Assembly: GCA_041651235.1 (NCBI GenBank)
Contig: JBAZJQ010000001.1
Coordinates: forward strand, 558,449-622,448
DNA length: 64,000 nucleotides
Direction of reading: 5' to 3'
From: Candidatus Pacearchaeota archaeon
GTDB lineage: Archaea > Nanobdellota > Nanobdellia > Pacearchaeales > GW2011-AR1
Every line of letters begins with the position of its first letter. Positions within the stretch are counted from its first letter, which is position 1. Under the pieces are notes generated by a model, which was given only the letters and a program-made list of their open reading frames with translations, was not told the origin of the DNA and did not search any database. Position numbers and translations under genes: made by a program. Shown here piece after piece: positions 1,924 to 41,668 of this stretch.

Positions 1924-3195
1924 ATGAAAATAGGCATAATTGGTGGAAGCGGATTAGATGATCCAAAACTTTTAACTGATTATCAGGAGAAATATACAGA
2001 TACTCCTTTTGGAAAACCTAGTTGCGCTTTGGTTTGTGGGAAATTAAATGGAGTTGAAGTTGTTATTTTAGCTAGACATGGAAAAGAACATACGATTTCT
2101 CCTGGAAATATAAATTACAGAGCAAATATTTATGCTTTAAAGCAAGAAGGCTGTGATTATATTCTTGCTACTTCTGCTGTTGGGAGTTTGAAAGAAGAAA
2201 TTGAACCTGGGAATCTTGTTTTTCCTAATCAGTTTTTGGATTTTACAAAAAACAGAAAAAATACTTTTTTTGAAGATGAAGTTAAGCATACTCCCATGGC
2301 AGAACCTTATAATAATAAGTTAAGAAGTTTATTGTGCGATTGTTGTAATAAACTTGGTTTGGAATATCATAATGAAGTTACAATGGTTGTTATTGAAGGC
2401 CCTAGATTTTCTACAAAAGCAGAAAGTTTTATGTTTAGACATTTAGGAGCAGATATTATTGGAATGACAGGATGTCCTGAATGCAGTTTAGCTAATGAAC
2501 TTGGTGTTCCTTATCAGACAATTGCAATGTCAACTGATTATGACTGCTGGAAAGAAGATGAAGAACCAGTTAGTTTTGAGATTGTTTTAAAGAGAATGAA
2601 AGAAAATGCAGATAAAGTTAAACAATTATTAATTGATGTTGTTCCTAAAATTGCTAGTGTAGATAGTGATTTTATTAAAAGTAAAATAAGAACAATTCCT
2701 GATTTTCCAAAACCAGGAATTATGTTTAGAGACATTACTACTTTAATAAAAGATAGTGAAGGAATGAATAGAGTTATTGAAATGTTTTATAATAAATATA
2801 AAGATAAAGAAATTGATGTTGTTGCTGGAATTGAATCAAGAGGATTTATTTTTGGAAGTATCTTAGCTAATAAGCTTGGAGTTGGTTTTGTTCCTATAAG
2901 AAAACCTGGAAAACTTCCAGGGGAAACTATTAAACAAGAATATTCTTTAGAATATGGAAAAGATGCAGTTGAAATTCATAAAGATGCAATTGAATCTGGA
3001 AAAAGAGTTTTGCTAATTGATGATTTGCTAGCTACTTCGGGCACCATGGGAGCAACTTGCAGTCTTATTGAACGAATAGGGGGAGAGATTATCGAATGTG
3101 CTTTTGTAATAGAATTAGAAGATTTAGGTGGAAGAAAAAAGCTTGAAGATAAAGGATATAGTGTGTTTAGTATTGTTAAGTTTGAAGGAGAATAA
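1924..3195 (+). CDS. fusion protein: 5'-methylthioadenosine/purine nucleoside phosphorylase (N-terminal) + adenine phosphoribosyltransferase (C-terminal)
   Basis: N-terminal MKIGIIGGSGL...ARHGKEHTISPGNINYRANIYALK...ATSAVGSL is MTAP/PNP-like. C-terminal IRTIPDFPKPGIMFRDITTL...GIESRGFIFG...VLLIDDLLATSGTMGA is the APRT PRPP-binding signature. Start trimmed to ATG 1924. Confidence 0.85.
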   Translation: MKIGIIGGSGLDDPKLLTDYQEKYTDTPFGKPSCALVCGKLNGVEVVILARHGKEHTISPGNINYRANIYALKQEGCDYILATSAVGSLKEEIEPGNLVFPNQFLDFTKNRKNTFFEDEVKHTPMAEPYNNKLRSLLCDCCNKLGLEYHNEVTMVVIEGPRFSTKAESFMFRHLGADIIGMTGCPECSLANELGVPYQTIAMSTDYDCWKEDEEPVSFEIVLKRMKENADKVKQLLIDVVPKIASVDSDFIKSKIRTIPDFPKPGIMFRDITTLIKDSEGMNRVIEMFYNKYKDKEIDVVAGIESRGFIFGSILANKLGVGFVPIRKPGKLPGETIKQEYSLEYGKDAVEIHKDAIESGKRVLLIDDLLATSGTMGATCSLIERIGGEIIECAFVIELEDLGGRKKLEDKGYSVFSIVKFEGE

Positions 3196-3366
3196 ATTTT
3201 TTTGTTGTTTTACTATTTTATTTATAATATACTAAACTGATGATATGTTTTATTGTGATTGTGCAGCTTCTTATAATTATAGTTTTTTATTTATATTTAG
3301 GAGTTTATTTATTTGCTTAAATGTTTTTCCAAAAACATTTAAAAACCATGTTTTCTTTTATATGAT

Positions 3367-4143
3367 ATGGGATTTGGTGATATCTTTTCAAAATCATGGG
3401 GTGAATATAAAAATAAATTTTGGGTTTTTACTCAGATATTCTTGTTATTTGGATTTCTTCCATCAATAATTTTATTTTTAGCTAATAAATCTTATTTAGA
3501 AAATTTTAATAATTTAATTGTTTCTGCAATCCAAAATAATTCTGGAGTGTTTAATAGCATAATCTCTTATATTTTTGTTGATAATCTAAGTTATACTTTG
3601 TTCCTGGCATTTTTAGGAATTTTAGTTTTTGCATTAGGAATATTAATGGGAGCTAGTTTTATTGTTAATGCTTTTTCAGGAAAAAAACTTGGATTTAAAG
3701 AATCTCTTAAAGGAGGAAAAAAATATTTTTGGAAATATTTTTGGTTTTCAGTTGTTTATAGTATATTTATTATATTATTATTTTTGTTATTAGTTGTTCC
3801 GGGTATAATTTTCATGATTTACTGGATTTTTGGAGCTTATATCTTAATTAATGAAAATAAAGGAATTTTAGCTTCATTAAAAGAAAGTAGAAAATTAATA
3901 AAAGGAAAATGGTGGAAGACATTTGGTTATTTTATCTTATTTAGTTTAATAATAATTGTTATTTCATGGATAGCTTCTCTTATTGGTTTTGGTTTAGAAA
4001 AAACTTTTTTATGGATATTGGGAAAACCTTTATGTTTTGAAGGATTTACTAATAGTATTTTTGTACAGCTAGCAAGTGTTGTAATTGCTCCTTTAAGTGT
4101 ATTATTTTTTAAGAATTTTTATTTAAGTATGAAAAAGAGATAA
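3367..4143 (+). CDS. polytopic membrane protein, unknown function
   Basis: 258 aa with about six hydrophobic helices. Confidence 0.55.
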   Translation: MGFGDIFSKSWGEYKNKFWVFTQIFLLFGFLPSIILFLANKSYLENFNNLIVSAIQNNSGVFNSIISYIFVDNLSYTLFLAFLGILVFALGILMGASFIVNAFSGKKLGFKESLKGGKKYFWKYFWFSVVYSIFIILLFLLLVVPGIIFMIYWIFGAYILINENKGILASLKESRKLIKGKWWKTFGYFILFSLIIIVISWIASLIGFGLEKTFLWILGKPLCFEGFTNSIFVQLASVVIAPLSVLFFKNFYLSMKKR

Positions 4144-7206: not shown

Positions 7207-7455
7207 ATGAAAACTAATTACCATCCACCTAGTGCAGAAAGTTTAGGATTAACTAGGGAACAATACAGACTTATGAGTCTAAAAGACTTAGTTAGGTACA
7301 GATCAACTAGAAAAATACCTCAAAAAACAGCAAATGATGAAGAAAGAGGCTCTTCTCAAACACCTCACCAGACTCGCTGTCTTTTTTATCATGGATTATT
7401 TCCTGAATTAGATCCTAATGGAGATTTTGACAGCTGGGCTTCTATCTTAGCTTAG
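7207..7455 (+). CDS. hypothetical protein (orphan)
   Basis: 82-aa ORF, no motif. Confidence 0.3.
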   Translation: MKTNYHPPSAESLGLTREQYRLMSLKDLVRYRSTRKIPQKTANDEERGSSQTPHQTRCLFYHGLFPELDPNGDFDSWASILA

Positions 7456-24250: not shown

Positions 24251-24560
24251 GTTAAGATGTTTGTTCTATAAGATATTGATATTTATAATTTATTAAGACA
24301 TATGTTATGCATAGGATATTAAGATGTTGATGATGATTTTTACTGAATTTTTTATAATCTTATAGAACAAACATTTTGTAGATGAGAAGATTAAAATGTT
24401 TTTGACATTTATTATTAATTGATAATTATTTTAATATTAATGAGAGTATTTTGATGAATAGATGTTTTGTTGTTTGTCTTAAGAAGATATAGATATATTA
24501 CTATATTTGGAATGTTAAGGTCTTATACTTTATACAGAAGAGGGTTAAGATGTTTATAAT
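24251..24560 (+). repeat. intergenic modular repeat, locus 6 (densest cluster; several A/B/C/D modules plus an internal inverted repeat)
   Basis: ATAATTTATTAAGACAT, GCATAGGATATTAAGATGTTGATGAT, TACTGAATTTTTTATAATC, TTGTAGATGAGAAGATTAAAATGTTTTTGAC, AATAGATGTTTTGTTGTTTGTCTTAAGAAGATATAGATAT, ACAGAAGAGGGTTAAGATGTTTATAAT. Also an imperfect (18/19) inverted repeat AAGATGTTTGTTCTATAAG (24254) / CTTATAGAACAAACATTTT (24359). Confidence 0.75.
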
Positions 24561-37707: not shown

Positions 37708-38187
37708 ATGGAAGAATCAGGTTTAGATAAATTAAAACAAGGTTATGAAATTCTTAAAAATAAATATAATCTGCCTAGTTTTGATGAAATGAATAAGTTA
37801 TTTGAAATAGAAGAATTATGTGATTGTGAAACTGATTTTTTAATTAGAAGAATAAGAAGAACTATTTCTGAAAGAGTTTCTGGACATTTGAGATTTGTTG
37901 AAACTTTGCTTAATCCCAGCAATGCACCAATTTTCTTTTTTAAATTAATTAAAAAACTTGATTCAGATGATAAAGAAAAGTTAAATAATATTTTAGAAGA
38001 GTTGGGCATGTTTGAGATAGACTTGGTTAAATTAGATTTGGAGTTTAATGAAGAAAAAGAAGCTGAGTTTGTTAATAATATATTTAATAGATTTTCTGAA
38101 ATAAAAAAACAGCTTTTAGAAATTGTTGATAAATTAGAAAACGGAGATAATAAAAAAGAAGATAATGAGAGAAGCTATTTTGGATGA
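37708..38187 (+). CDS. hypothetical acidic protein
   Basis: 159-aa ORF, no motif. Confidence 0.45.
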   Translation: MEESGLDKLKQGYEILKNKYNLPSFDEMNKLFEIEELCDCETDFLIRRIRRTISERVSGHLRFVETLLNPSNAPIFFFKLIKKLDSDDKEKLNNILEELGMFEIDLVKLDLEFNEEKEAEFVNNIFNRFSEIKKQLLEIVDKLENGDNKKEDNERSYFG

Positions 38188-38478
38188 TTGGGATTGATTA
38201 ACATCGGGATTAAGAGAAGTTGTTTGCAGTAACTTTAATCAATAAAATGGGCAAACAATTTGAGTTAATTTCAGGTTTTCACTAAGAAAATTGCAGATAG
38301 GCAAAAGAAATTACCTCTTAATCGCTGTTCAGGGATTTTTCAACATAAAAACATGAGTGGCGAACTAAGAGCCCTCGAGAGTCACAGATGAGTGGATGGT
38401 GGGAATGTTTGTCTAAAACCAATAGAATGAGAGAAATCACCTTTTTTGTTTCTTTTTTCCTAAAAAAGAAGTTTGTCT

Positions 38479-39104
38479 TTATCTCTTTTTTCTAAAGATT
38501 AAAAGTAAAACAATGATTAAAATCAATACTGCTAGACCATAAAATAAATACATCCCGTAACCTTCAAAATCCTAATTTGAACTTTCTTCAAAACTTAGGG
38601 CGGTAAGTGAACTATAATCTGGAATCTGTCTTTCTACAGAGCCAGTCATACCTTCTGGAGCAGAACCTCCTCCAAGAAGCAAACCAGGAGTTAGCTGCTC
38701 TTCAATATTCACTAAATCTTCATCACTAGCCCCAACAATAATGCCTTTAGCAGACAACATCTTTAAGGCTGTTGGAAGAAACTCAACTGCAGTATCTGCA
38801 TAATCTGGAGTGGTAAAAACTGAAAGATAATATTTATTTAAATCCTCGTCATATCTAACCTGGAAACCATTTCCACGACCACCTTCATCAGATAACTTAA
38901 AGATGATTGATCTCCAAGTGCTTCCATCATCAAAGATACAGGAGCCTTCTGAACAAAAACTTTCAATAGCATCCATATCTATCTTTATTTTATACCTTCA
39001 TTCAATTCAGCAAATCCAGTATTTCCTGGAACTAATGCAGAAGCCAAGTTAATTGAAAGCAAAGCTAAAAATAAAAATGTAGTAATTGAATATATATTTT
39101 TCAT
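38479..39104 (-). pseudogene. disrupted gene for a small secreted, C-terminally anchored protein (three pieces)
   Basis: Piece 1 is a 39-aa signal-peptide ORF 39104..38985 (MKNIYSITTFLFLALLSINLASA...). Piece 2 is a 134-aa body 38976..38572 in another frame; one extra A in the AAAA run would fuse them. Piece 3 follows an in-frame TAG at 38572-38574: DFEGYGMYLFYGLAVLILIIVLLLIFRKKR, a TM anchor ending at 38479. Confidence 0.5.
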
Positions 39105-39289
39105 GAAATAAATAGGTTTAAGGTATTTATAAATGTTTTTTTAACTTCAATGCTATTTGAAGTTAGTTTCATTCTATGAAATAAGAAAAATTTGGGAGAG
39201 CAATAGCGAATCTCTTAACCTTTGTTAGAAAAAGTGCGAAGCATTTTTTGAGTTTGTTTTGATTGGATAAAAGAAGTTTTTTCCTGTTT

Positions 39290-39560
39290 AGTTAGGCTAC
39301 AATCTGCTATCTAGGCGCGGGTGGTCGGGGGATGGCCTAAAGGATATTTTGCATTTTTAGTTTAGAACTTTCTTCTTCTGGGGCGGGGAATTCATTAGTT
39401 AAGCCAGATTCGAATTTGGGCGTAAGTCTGTGAACGTTTGCGCATAAGGAAAGTGCGAATGAAATGAGCATTTGGGTGAGTGAGTGCGCGAGCGAACTCT
39501 TTATGCGCTGTTCAACGAGGTGAGGACTAAGTCCGAAAGTGCAACGTCCCTTTAGCGTTT
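39290..39560. ncRNA. GC-rich non-coding island, candidate structured RNA (family not assigned)
   Basis: About 47% G+C by my count over 39301-39540, against a much lower background. No ORF of 60 aa or more in any frame. Stems GCGCATAA(39440)/TTATGCGC(39501) and GGAC-TAA-GTCC (39524-39534). GAAAGTGC[GA]A occurs three times (39230, 39449, 39535). Confidence 0.4.
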
Positions 39561-39571
39561 AGTTTGGAGCT
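39558..39571. repeat. left arm of a perfect 14-bp inverted repeat bracketing ORF 39609..39887
   Basis: TTTAGTTTGGAGCT; exact reverse complement at 39887..39900. Confidence 0.9.
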
Positions 39572-39608
39572 ACAAAAGATTAATAAGGTTGGAAATTATG
39601 AAATAATT

Positions 39609-39887
39609 ATGAAATCAATAAAAGAACTAAAGAATCCAGATATTATTACAATTAATAAAGAAAAATTTCAAGTTATTGAGAATTCAAGTGTCTGGTATCA
39701 TACAGATAGAAATGAATTAGAAATGGGAGTCGGATTAATTAAGATTGGAGAAAAAAGTATGACTCCCACACATGCCCTGCATTATATTTATGAAAAACCA
39801 GACAATATAAAATTATGGAAATTTTTCGCTTACAGTAAAGATAAAAAAGAGATGGAAGAGACTAATCTGGATTCTCATAATTTCTAA
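39609..39887 (+). CDS. hypothetical protein enclosed by the inverted repeat
   Basis: ORF-track start 39564 is a TTG inside the repeat arm; first ATG is 39609 (MKSIKELKNPD...); no motif. Confidence 0.35.
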   Translation: MKSIKELKNPDIITINKEKFQVIENSSVWYHTDRNELEMGVGLIKIGEKSMTPTHALHYIYEKPDNIKLWKFFAYSKDKKEMEETNLDSHNF

Positions 39888-39900
39888 GCTCCAAACTAAA
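39887..39900. repeat. right arm of the perfect 14-bp inverted repeat
   Basis: AGCTCCAAACTAAA, overlapping the ORF stop codon. Confidence 0.9.
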
Positions 39901-39914
39901 TGTCGATGAACATA

Positions 39915-39944
39915 ATCATATCATAACTTTAGTGATGATATGAT
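39915..39944. terminator. 10-bp perfect hairpin between convergent genes (terminator-like)
   Basis: ATCATATCAT-aactttagtg-ATGATATGAT. Confidence 0.35.
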
Positions 39945-39997
39945 ATCACTGGGAGATGTTAGTATAACTTCTAAGGGTATTTTATTTTAAAAAATAT

Positions 39998-41668
39998 TTA
40001 CATTAAATCTTCAATGTTTAGCTCTAATGTTGCAACTGGCATCTTAATTTTATTGTTCTTTAGAACATTAGGATTGGTTTCTCCTAAAATCCCAATTGAT
40101 TCCTGCTTTTTATCTTTATTAACTATTATCTCTCCTACTCTGCCTTCAATAAAACTTGAGTTTTCTGTTTCTCTTATTTCATATGTTTTATTTAGCATTT
40201 TCATTAAATAATCTAGAATTTGTTTTATTTCTGTAAAATTAGCTTTATCTGAACATATGGAAATACATAATTTTTCAGTTTCTTTTATCTGAGTTTCTGA
40301 ATTCTTGTAATCATTATCATTTTCAAATACTTTTCCTAATTCAAATAATTTTTGAGGATATTCTGCATTTGAATTTTCACTTAATATTTGAATTGATTGA
40401 GCTATTAATGAATTTCTTAAAATATTGTTTTCTGTTTTAGAATCAAGAACTTCAATTACTTTATGATTAAATTCTTTTATTGAAAGATTTTTGTATTGTT
40501 TTTCTTTTGTTGATAAATGGAATGTTGAAATTTCTTGTAATTTTAATCCAATTAAAATTTCTGATATTTTTCTCTTTAAGATAGCAAGAGGATTTTCTTC
40601 TCCAATTGTTGAAATTGCAGGGATTTCTTCTTTGAAATTGTCATAACCATATGCAATTGCTATTTCTTCTGTTAAATCAATTTCGTGAAGAATATCAGTT
40701 CTGTAGGCAGGAATTAAAGCAATAGCCTTTGTTTTTTGTTTTTCAAATCCAATACCCATTTTTTCCAATAATTTTATTATCTCTTTTTCAGTTAAGTTTA
40801 ATCCAAGTGTTTTGTTAATTGTTTCAATTGTAAATTCTAATTTTTCTGGTTCTAGGTTTGGGGATAACTCTGTTTTAGAGTCTTTTATCTCCATTTGATA
40901 GATTTTACCTTCCATATCTGCCAGAGAAGTTACAATCATGTTGAGGGTCTTTTGAAGATATTCTTTGTTAAATCCAGAGCATTCAATAAAAATATCTTTT
41001 GTATTTTCTGTTATTTTACCTGTTTTATGAGAGTTTATTATAGGGGGCATAGATAAGACTTCATTATTTGCATCTTGGAAAATTGGGAATAATTCATAAT
41101 CTTTTAGTAAATTTCCATATTCTCTTCCTGCTGGATGTTGAGATAAAATCTGTTTTCCTGTTATTTCTTTTGGAAATTCTAGTGGCTGGAATTTAATTTC
41201 TTCTGGTTTTTTAGCTAAAAAAGTAATTGGAAGTTTTATTGATTCTAATGGATAAATTCCAATTGCTAGTTTTTTTCTGTTTCTTCCATAACTTGCATGA
41301 AGTTTTTCTTGAATATCAATTATGTTTTTTATTTTTTCATCATTTAGTTTTAATCCCCTTACAATAGCACAAGCTGTAAATGGCCTTACATTTTTAACTG
41401 ATTTATCTATTGTTACTTTGAAATCTTTTTCTGGTTTTTCTAGTTTATATTTTTTAATTTCTGGTTTTTTTAAGAAACAACTTAGTGCTCTTGCAAATCC
41501 CTGAAAAGACAATAAATCTGGCCTGTTTGGGAAAACTTCGACACTTATTTCACTTTCACTTATTTCTTCAACAGGAGTTCCAAACATAGTTATTTTGTTT
41601 TCAATTTCAGATGTTATTTTTCCTATTTCTTTTTCAAGTTCTTTTTTGTTTAGTGTTAAGATTGTCAT
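39998..41668 (-). CDS. pheT: phenylalanyl-tRNA synthetase beta subunit (archaeal type)
   Basis: MTILTLNKKELEK...VEVFPNRPDLLSFQGFARAL (B3_4/B5 region), 556 aa. Confidence 0.9.
   Translation of the reverse strand: MTILTLNKKELEKEIGKITSEIENKITMFGTPVEEISESEISVEVFPNRPDLLSFQGFARALSCFLKKPEIKKYKLEKPEKDFKVTIDKSVKNVRPFTACAIVRGLKLNDEKIKNIIDIQEKLHASYGRNRKKLAIGIYPLESIKLPITFLAKKPEEIKFQPLEFPKEITGKQILSQHPAGREYGNLLKDYELFPIFQDANNEVLSMPPIINSHKTGKITENTKDIFIECSGFNKEYLQKTLNMIVTSLADMEGKIYQMEIKDSKTELSPNLEPEKLEFTIETINKTLGLNLTEKEIIKLLEKMGIGFEKQKTKAIALIPAYRTDILHEIDLTEEIAIAYGYDNFKEEIPAISTIGEENPLAILKRKISEILIGLKLQEISTFHLSTKEKQYKNLSIKEFNHKVIEVLDSKTENNILRNSLIAQSIQILSENSNAEYPQKLFELGKVFENDNDYKNSETQIKETEKLCISICSDKANFTEIKQILDYLMKMLNKTYEIRETENSSFIEGRVGEIIVNKDKKQESIGILGETNPNVLKNNKIKMPVATLELNIEDLM

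Follow-up and report, generated by a model that had tools for sequence, protein, structure and literature searches.

A probable integron-like cassette array with Xer-type affinities beside pheT in a Pacearchaeota genome

Integrons have already been reported from Archaea, including Nanoarchaeota, together with clusters of attC sites that lack an integrase (CALINs) (Ghaly et al. 2022, PMC9668308). Two further kinds of elements exploit Xer recombination. In the CTX-phage type of integrative mobile elements exploiting Xer (IMEX), folded single-stranded DNA (ssDNA) recreates a dif-like duplex, of which one strand pair is exchanged by Xer (PMC3442271), and the dif modules of Acinetobacter plasmids have 28-bp sites in alternating inverted orientation and no hairpins (PMC6449649, PMC13141974). 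Here we describe a locus at positions 38196-39985 of a 64,000-nt stretch of contig JBAZJQ010000001.1 from a Candidatus Pacearchaeota archaeon (assembly GCA_041651235.1), which is referred to as the window. A preliminary description of the window had noticed a small open reading frame (ORF) enclosed by a perfect 14-bp inverted repeat (IR). We propose, with a probability of about two in three, that the locus is a small integron-like, Xer-type cassette array of a DPANN host, located between a conserved gene and pheT. In our reading, a mobile cassette is bounded by a folded recombination site, and the IR is the basal stem of this site, split into its two halves. The proposal draws on the observed architecture of the sites, their recurrence, the covariation and strand asymmetry of their stems, their association with XerA-type recombinases, and the presence or absence of cassettes between strains and between species, which is the evidence for mobility here.

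The 14-mer TTTAGTTTGGAGCT at 39558-39571 and its exact reverse complement AGCTCCAAACTAAA at 39887-39900 were found precisely where the preliminary description had placed them, with an interval of 315 nt. The helix which they can form extends to 16 positions, 39556-39571 with 39887-39902, and consists of a C-G pair, a G·T wobble and the 14 perfect pairs, continuous and without bulges. The two strands are called the left and right arms. The features of this cassette and of the site that follows it are listed below.

39428-39518, + strand: attC-like hairpin of the ORF cassette (nhmmer E 3.6e-35; ssDNA fold)
39519-39555, + strand: extension (ext) GGTGAGGACTAAGTCCGAAAGTGCAACGTCCCTTTAG, a small hairpin between the R'-box and the left arm
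39556-39571, + strand: left arm CGTTTAGTTTGGAGCT, 3' strand of the basal stem, containing the 14-mer 39558-39571
39573-39586, + strand: motif CAAAAGATTAATAA resembling a transcription factor B recognition element and TATA box (BRE/TATA), between the left arm and the ATG
39609-39887, + strand: cargo gene of 92 aa, on the minority strand of the array
39887-39902, + strand: right arm AGCTCCAAACTAAATG, 5' strand of the basal stem
39903-39985, + strand: terminal AT-rich site with R-box TCGATGAAC (39903-39911) and hairpin ATCATATCAT (39915-39924) / ATGATATGAT (39935-39944)

The IR had been described as very unlikely by chance, which was overstated, as about 1.1 comparable IRs are expected per window. 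We counted perfect IRs of at least 14 bp at a spacing of 20-400 and compared them with first-order Markov simulations of the window (28% GC). The window holds three such IRs, while the simulations held 1.11 ± 1.03, and 68% of them held at least one. The two other perfect 14-bp IRs lie at 24257/24361 (ATGTTTGTTCTATA) and 48784/49134 (AAACTCTTTTTAAA) with no element nearby, and their number is consistent with chance. The significance of the IR around the ORF comes from comparison, namely from its conservation, its covariation and the same architecture around unrelated genes. A chance repeat without function would agree with the simulated expectation, but it is extremely improbable, since the arms are conserved with compensatory changes in orthologous loci and complementary arms occupy the same positions in 57 of 79 cassettes.

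Arms of this kind are a general feature of related arrays. A helix score of at least 11 was obtained in 57 of the 79 segments between neighboring elements, as compared to 3.7% of 924 controls in which left and right sides were mismatched. The bracketing arms are 12-20 bp long, are each segment's own, and occupy two positions that are fixed throughout. In most cases, the window's 39887-39902 included, 6 nt separate the end of the right arm from the AAC of the R-box that comes next, and the left arm starts 24-129 nt, mostly 39-71 nt, past the G of the R'-box. For example, the related locus L061 has its own arm pairs of 13 bp and 18 bp (related loci carry L numbers), and in L073 another, minus-strand gene has TTGAGTTTCTGGAC and GTCCAGAAACTCAA around it, just after the ext and just before the next TGTCGTATAAC. 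Complementarity across the element itself was at the control level (7/116), which ruled out that the arms flank the element, as expected of an insertion into a palindrome or of a miniature inverted-repeat transposable element (MITE).

To describe the covariation, 53 distinct arm pairs were aligned from their outer end, 6 nt ahead of the AAC. The pairing at each position was as follows.

Position 1: A-T (44) or C-G (8) in the 53 pairs
Position 2: G·T in 52 of 53
Position 3: T-A (51) in the 53 pairs
Positions 4-15: 87-100% Watson-Crick, with all four pair types
Positions 16-17: pairing decays

Conservation of the arms in orthologous loci, which the preliminary description had proposed to check, was borne out, as the IR is kept with compensatory changes in orthologues of the ORF. 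One arm position is A-T in the window, G·T in L022 and G-C in L014, L010 and L017. A compensated change in L089 turns GGAGCT/AGCTCC into GGGGCT/AGCCCC. On the + strand of the element G·T outnumbers A·C by 64 to 6, about 52 of the 64 being the single wobble at position 2. Because G·T exceeds A·C on it, the + strand is taken as the folding strand.

The arms are not specific to a gene. One arm family, AGTAAATTTGGAGTCC, surrounds unrelated genes in L115, L168 and L209, and therefore the arms belong to the site family and not to the cargo. This bears on the suggestion that the ORF is a tiny mobile cassette with terminal inverted repeats. Of the earlier suggestions, a tiny mobile cassette comes closest, as the ORF and both arms behave as one unit in at least six unrelated genomic neighborhoods and the array is absent in relatives. 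The arms, in contrast, are not repeats of the transposon type. A perfect IR around a small ORF in several contexts is what a small transposon or MITE-like cassette would present, but the stretch in which the window and the closest loci are homologous at the nucleotide level begins at 39438 or 39500 and ends at 39905-39911, reaching 60-120 nt past the left arm and about 10 nt past the right arm. Moreover, the arms vary between cassettes, the same arm family also surrounds unrelated genes, and the arms are set at constant distances inward of attC-like recombination boxes. No obvious target-site duplication was seen on reading the flanks, without a systematic test, the ORF is not transposase-like, and the window holds no extra copies. 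We consider terminal repeats of a transposon very unlikely. A search of the genome for further copies of the 14-mer had been suggested earlier; in the window we found one near-copy, TTTAGTTTAGAACT at 39356-39369, in direct orientation with 2 mismatches, and no others.

The cassette starts with a site that resembles attC. What the preliminary description had called a GC-rich island contains, as its 3' half (39428-39555), a copy of a hairpin element whose AAC/GTT boxes are like those of attC. Its R-box CTGTGAAC (39428-39435) and R'-box TGTTCAACGA (39509-39518) enclose an L-stem, in which TTGCGCATAAGG (39438-39449) pairs with CTTTATGCGC (39499-39508), and a variable center with two small hairpins. 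With an nhmmer profile, more than 50 loci were found to have arrays of such elements, all on one strand and spaced by 0.2-3 kb. The hosts are metagenome-assembled genomes (MAGs) of Woese-, Pace-, Nano- and Aenigmarchaeota and Nanobdellota, and examples include L061, L073 (five copies), L212, L161, L154, L182 and about 45 further DPANN loci. The element is also found without the ORF in other DPANN MAGs.

The AAC and TGTT triplet regions are the most conserved columns of our alignment of the family (A2), which was built before the AAC/GTT triplets served as anchors. The 124 unique elements measure 71-179 nt from AAC to GTT. The R-box (...GTATAAC) pairs with the R'-box (GTTATAC...). In 83 of the 124 the spacer is asymmetric, with 3 nt 5' and 1 nt 3', which amounts to a bulge of 2 nt, and the 11-bp L-stem has at least about 8 of 10 positions paired in 106 of them, with many compensatory changes and a variable top above it. 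In many copies, including the one in the window, a conserved side hairpin of about 40 nt (GAGGCGAGGACGAAGTCCGAGAGTGCAACGTCCCTTTAG), the ext, follows the R'-box. The GGAC/GTCC stem of the ext is compensated to GGAT/ATCC in L022, and its loop GARAGTGCAACG is conserved. The commonest R-boxes, GTATAAC/GTTATAC, are those of a published archaeal attC (PMC9668308, data S9/S10). Neither the GTGCAACG motif nor the TCGTATAAC box occurs in the supplement of that paper.

These arrays share several properties with integrons. Hairpin sites in tandem and in the same orientation separate cassettes that mostly carry a single accessory ORF. The sites are imperfect hairpins with R''/R' and L''/L' boxes and a variable terminal structure, have R-boxes of the AAC...GTT form and an L-stem, and fall in the size range of 60-180 nt. 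Folding appears to be strand-specific, and the start of a cassette is complementary to its own inverse core. The sites differ from those of integrons in the side hairpin of about 40 nt with conserved internal motifs, and in the 3 nt/1 nt spacer, where canonical attC sites have an unpaired central spacer and extrahelical bases. They also differ in the stem of 15-16 bp with an invariant G·T outside the R-boxes, which extends the complementarity of the cassette ends.

Conserved, covarying helices would also be expected of RNA. One alternative is that the + strand gives rise to structured noncoding RNAs or cis-acting RNA modules, with the arms as a long-range RNA helix which loops out what lies between them, for processing, circularization or stabilization, like the processing stems of archaeal rRNA. 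The invariant G·T (G·U in RNA) and the 64:6 excess on one strand fit this alternative, as do the highly conserved loops and the compensatory changes in hairpins within the element, and the region 39280-39910 folded as RNA gave a z score of -4.65. The GC-rich island alone, however, folds no better than shuffled sequences (z +0.13), and no Rfam match at gathering score was found in the window and seven related loci, where only chance snoRNA-like matches appeared at E <= 10. Archaeal bulge-helix-bulge stems, as in rRNA operons and tRNA or rRNA introns, likewise form a long-range helix from sequences that flank a functional segment. In contrast to them, the arms have no 3-nt bulges and no 4-bp central helix, positions 1-15 being paired in at least 87% of the 53 arm pairs, and they enclose a protein gene, which may be on either strand, between hairpins of the recombination type. 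The longest cassette ORFs are on the minus strand in 49 cases and on the plus strand in 27 (n=76), so that a single RNA strand would carry many antisense genes. The conserved BRE/TATA-like motif of the ORF lies inward of the left arm. Furthermore, the positional link to a recombinase, the strain junction in the R-box and the empty site, all given below, are phenomena of DNA. We regard an RNA explanation as unlikely. The earlier suggestions of a long-range RNA helix, of an insertion into a structured RNA and of bulge-helix-bulge processing were not supported, given the missing Rfam match, the missing bulges and the genes on either strand. No GC-rich 3' half of such an RNA was found after the right arm in the window. 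RNase P RNA, signal recognition particle RNA, C/D-box sRNA, riboswitches and ribozymes were considered for the GC-rich island and rejected, since no model matched and the arrays hold genes on either strand.

The integron-like reading is further supported by the recombinases of related arrays. In 13 loci, a XerA-like tyrosine recombinase with 37-47% identity to that of L017 is located beyond the 3' end of the array, in all 13 on the + strand of the elements and on the same side. With 49 of the 76 longest cassette ORFs on the opposite, minus strand, the recombinase is divergent from the cassettes, as in canonical integrons, and as in integrons a distinct proximal site accompanies it. Proximal sites were seen in the related loci, and in the window the proximal-type site 39903-39985 stands alone. 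The 12 extracted enzymes are 259-285 aa long, with R, K, HxxR, H and Y invariant, and the best match of all 12 scanned was NF040815 (XerA_Arch). The L017 enzyme scored 244.6 bits with this model (cut-off 220). Its best match in the PDB was XerA of P. abyssi (4a8e, 1e-48), and IntI4 (2a3v) was matched in two stretches. The region of the IntI insert appears to be unmatched. The enzymes of the relatives score as XerA and appear to differ from integron integrases in lacking the IntI-specific additional domain near patch III; the window itself has neither an IntI-domain integrase nor another tyrosine recombinase. In L073, the recombinase at 3136-3925 was matched as two pieces (3136-3609 and 3671-3925), suggesting that it is frameshifted or a pseudogene in that MAG.

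The XerA type of these enzymes raises the question of whether the arrays are modules of double-stranded DNA (dsDNA) of the Xer/dif type, as in IMEX or the Acinetobacter dif modules, exchanging at 11-6-11 cores, with hairpins and arms that are incidental or serve, for example, in termination. The use of a Xer-family recombinase for gene mobility and the bounding of modules by Xer-type sites, some of them 11-6-11-like, are indeed common to both, and some sites in our arrays (L014, L015 and L083) are minimal and of this layout. However, most sites have 70-180 nt between their two arms, which is unfit for a dsDNA core unless folded, and the strand-specific G·T and the covarying stems argue for selection on folding. 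Sites within each array are direct and not alternating inverted, and 28-bp sites of the alternating 11-6-11 arrangement were not what we found. The known elements also rely on the bacterial XerC/XerD heterodimer, in contrast to the single XerA-type enzyme here, IMEX are phages or islands at chromosomal dif and not arrays of single-gene cassettes, and the three-way-junction site has no described counterpart among them. A dsDNA mechanism appears improbable to us. In sequence terms, the system resembles the Xer-exploiting elements in its enzyme and not in its site layout.

As a separate observation, the minimal sites consist of two R-type arms only 5-10 nt apart, in a dif-like 11-6-11 layout and without a hairpin. 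They are found at L014 5432-5460 (GTCGTATAA-GCCCTG-TTATGTC), L015 1757-1785 (...-TTCTTG-TTAATTG), L083 around 1790 (...-CGATG-TTATATT) and L089 around 940.

Comparison of near-identical strains placed a junction at the R-box. L014 and L015 are 99.5% identical over 1774 bp, with 100% identity over the last 400 nt, and are then unrelated. The identity ends at ...GTCGTATAA| (box AAATGTCGTATAA), inside the conserved box 3' of the right arm, ATGTCGTATAA. Such a junction is consistent with the crossover of canonical attC sites, AA|C (G|TT on the complementary strand), when read on the strand with the G·T wobble. Homology between the window and L022 starts near 39438, just past the AAC at 39433-39435.

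An empty site was also found. The preliminary description had proposed to look for one in related genomes, and L001 and L002 provided it: the homologue of the gene at 37708-38187 lies 100-190 nt from the end of pheT, as compared to 1.8 kb in the window. Synteny with relatives that share PheT had at first yielded no homologue of the locus, and this proved to be the empty site. Between pheT and the homologue of the 159-aa gene in L001 (about 7235-7425), there are two similar units of about 60 nt with TGAAGATGATAA...TTCACT...GAG, which are reminiscent of the boxes of C/D-box sRNAs.

Taking the locus as an integron-like array, we propose the following mechanism. The crossover would take place within the R-box at GTATAA|C on the + strand of the window, between A39434 and C39435 in the R-box 39428-39435 and at A39910|C39911 in the terminal R-box. 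The cassette would thus run on the + strand from C39435 to A39910 and comprise the hairpin, the ext, the left arm, the promoter-like motif, the ORF, the right arm and TCGATGAA. Linearizing it at the R-box would leave one strand of the basal stem at each cassette end, so that the gene lies between the arms as long as the cassette is in the chromosome. After excision as a circle, 39910 would be joined to 39435, with the predicted junction ...GATGAA|CGTTTGCG..., and the hairpin and its ext would follow directly on the right arm and be followed by the left arm, with the arms closing a three-way junction. Folded as ssDNA, the circle junction reached -31.0 kcal/mol (z -4.2) in the form of a three-way junction with the arms as its closing stem, while the same element with its chromosomal 5' flank gave -18.8 kcal/mol (z +0.3). 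These folding results support the circle model.

A XerA-like recombinase, acting in trans in the case of the window, would bind the folded + strand and exchange strands at AA|C, in the same way as IntI acts on attC sites and XerC on the folded DNA of CTX phage. Once folded, the R-duplex, spacer and L-duplex read as a dif-like core with two arms, CGTATAA - ~6-8 - TTAAGAG. The arms would add about 12 kcal/mol, and the site would fold readily in the excised cassette, favoring its re-integration. Alternatively, in ssDNA of the array the arms might zip two flanking sites together and allow the precise excision of a single cassette.

Several points weigh against our reading. No tyrosine recombinase was found in the window by tblastn, and pheT ends at 39998 after the terminal site. 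The array-end enzyme is of the XerA and not of the IntI type, the L017 enzyme scoring 194 with the integron-integrase model TIGR02249, below the cut-off of 265, in two stretches, the best of which covers model positions 239-313, and it could be a housekeeping XerA that happens to adjoin the arrays. Of the 79 segments, 22 have no clear arm helix, among them the other cassette of the window. The 64:6 strand bias is largely one feature counted many times, and the conserved loops (GARAGTGCAACG, AATTTGGGAGAG) and the invariant G·T would also fit RNA. Canonical extrahelical bases in L'' were not identified in the elements, and their spacer or bulge is unlike that of canonical attC. The crossover can be placed only within ATGTCGTATAA|N, because the box is a family-wide consensus. 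About one third of the cassette genes, including the ORF described here, are antisense, which differs from integrons in that the share is larger than is known for those of bacteria. Finally, the role of the arms in recombination is one that we infer.

Judged by its sequences, the system has the sites and the array of integrons and lacks the IntI domain that defines their integrase. Many of the arrays lack a recombinase, as is also the case among integrons, and the array in the window resembles a CALIN. The Xer-family recombinase is seen at the array ends of relatives and not in the window. We further suggest, tentatively and with somewhat less than even confidence, that these arrays are an undescribed class of integron-like gene capture in DPANN archaea. 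Such a class would have a XerA-type enzyme without the IntI domain, a three-way junction of about 200 nt that is split by the crossover, and resident cassettes which carry stem strands of 15-16 bp with the invariant G·T and can fold completely only as circles. A limited literature search found no published description of a XerA-type recombinase linked to such arrays, of the ext hairpin or of the split 15-16-bp stem, and some of these sites may already count as attC in the output of standard tools.

If this is true, the split stem would be a built-in switch that tells resident cassettes from mobile ones, a simple and testable device which could explain how arrays are stable while excised cassettes are recombinogenic. 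If our reading is correct, gene capture of the integron type needs no IntI-specific domain, and a plain XerA-type enzyme, probably the only type of tyrosine recombinase that many of these tiny genomes have, may act at folded hairpin sites. This would bear on the origin of integrons from Xer systems and on how genome-reduced DPANN archaea acquire accessory genes. It would also give a practical signature for such cassettes in metagenomes, where they could escape standard integron finders that depend on IntI or on canonical attC models. For the present locus, the GC-rich island should be annotated as recombination sites and not as an RNA gene, and the 92-aa ORF as cassette cargo.

The ORF at 39609-39887 encodes 92 aa plus a stop codon, one residue fewer than the 93 aa given earlier. 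The overlap of the stop codon with the right arm was confirmed: TAA at 39885-39887 shares one base with it. The protein has homologues in 16 clusters at 59-85% identity from metagenomes of the Woese- and Pacearchaeota type, and on this conservation we regard the ORF as a real gene. In our reading it is the cargo of the cassette, antisense to most cassette genes. No family match of the protein was found in Pfam, NCBIfam, PADLOC or PHROGs. Structure prediction, which had been suggested in the preliminary description, yielded an all-beta AlphaFold2 model with a pLDDT of 77.7, and a search of the PDB with it gave no match at E < 0.001, the weak top matches being beta domains of the eIF5A/EF-P type.

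The TATA-like part of CAAAAGATTAATAA begins 30 nt upstream of the ATG, and its position is kept in all orthologues that were aligned or inspected. A motif of this type is also present in L011, which has no recognizable element. The consensus of archaeal BRE/TATA elements is well established, and from it we infer a promoter function for the motif. Because the motif lies between the left arm and the ATG, the mRNA presumably does not include the left arm, suggesting a leaderless or short-leader transcript.

A second perfect IR, of 11 bp, was noticed at the two ends of the coding region, 39631-39641 (AGAATCCAGAT) and 39865-39875 (ATCTGGATTCT), in the KNPD and NLDS codons at the 5' and 3' ends, respectively. 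It is 10 bp in L007 and 8 bp in L005, both without the outer arms, and is lost in L011. It could reflect pairing of the mRNA ends or be a by-product of amino acid conservation. At L005 4280-4330 and L007 4280-4310, decayed remnants of an arm and R-box (GCCCCAAAACCCGAAAGCCATATAAC, GCTCAGAACTATTTCTGTTTTTTAAC) lie 3' of these more distant orthologues of the ORF, and neighboring genes overlap the remnants. They look like fossilized cassettes that became fixed in the chromosome.

The cargo of other cassettes includes GNAT, S-adenosylmethionine-dependent methyltransferase, Mrr, nucleotidyltransferase, YbaK-like, NUDIX, ParE, MazG and HAD proteins. From these families it is typical accessory content, and integrons also carry GNAT, toxin and methyltransferase genes. 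Read on the minus strand, the conserved box is GATGTTATAC, which places an ATG right at the crossover that we propose (AT G|TT). Several cassette ORFs of the minus strand can be lengthened to start there (L073 1626-1628, L061, L132 and L212; MLY... or MLN... starts), which is either an artifact of ORF calling or a sign that the site donates a start codon to incoming cassettes.

The other parts of the array in the window, which spans 38196-39985 at about 28% GC with sites at 38196, about 39137, 39428 and 39903, are listed below.

38196-38334, + strand: first hairpin element (nhmmer 38197-38331, E 3.6e-5)
38572-38976, - strand: cargo ORF of 134 aa between the first and the later elements, on the majority strand
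39137-39229, + strand: degenerate element copy, with TTTTTTAAC, then AATTTGGGAGAGC, then TTTGTTAGA (weak nhmmer match, E 0.055)
39290-39423, + strand: 5' half of the GC-rich island, not a hairpin element

The first element begins 9 nt past the stop codon of the gene at 37708-38187. It has the R-box GATTAAC (38196-38202), an L-stem in which GGGATTAAGAG (38206-38216) pairs with CTCTTAATCGC (38315-38325), and the R'-box TGTTCAGGG (38326-38334). On the other side of the array, pheT encodes the beta subunit of an archaeal-type phenylalanyl-tRNA synthetase with 70% identity to homologues in MAGs of Woesearchaeota and Pacearchaeota. The terminal site is 90.7% identical over 43 nt with the last site about 70 nt upstream of the recombinase gene of L131, and because of this match to a recombinase-proximal site we place it in an attI-like position.

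The 134-aa ORF had no family match, and no convincing arm pair was found around its segment (helix score 6). A signal-peptide-like ORF of 38 codons on the minus strand, starting at 39103 (MKNIYSITTFLFLALLSINLASA...), stops just short of the ATG of the 134-aa ORF at 38976, and the cargo gene in 38572-39103 may be split by a frameshift or by decay. The segment 39179-39281 is 82% identical (blastn) with noncoding DNA of L014 and L106.

The 5' half of the GC-rich island holds the GC-rich motif CTAGGCGCGGGTGGTCGGGGGAT (39311-39333) and the direct near-copy of the 14-mer at 39356-39369, an orphan arm-like repeat. The motif, (C/T)TAGGGGNGGGTGGTCGGGGGAT, occurs in the orientation of the elements in five arrays: the window (39311-39333), L014 (7683), L117 (4334), L184 (292) and L211 (4286). 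It is located about 130 nt upstream of the recombinase gene in L117 and just before an element in L211.

With respect to distribution outside DPANN genomes, pattern matches on bacterial contigs were mostly due to chance (about 140-280 expected with 16-17 specified bases) and were excluded by nhmmer. All 11 pattern matches on viral contigs were also due to chance, with no element present. Arrays were found on contigs of MAGs labeled as bacteria, L056, L123, L132, L167 and L173 (Moraniibacteriota, 'Gammaproteobacteria', Bdellovibrionales and 'bacterium'), most of them with 29-34% GC, and they represent either mis-binned DPANN DNA or spread across domains.

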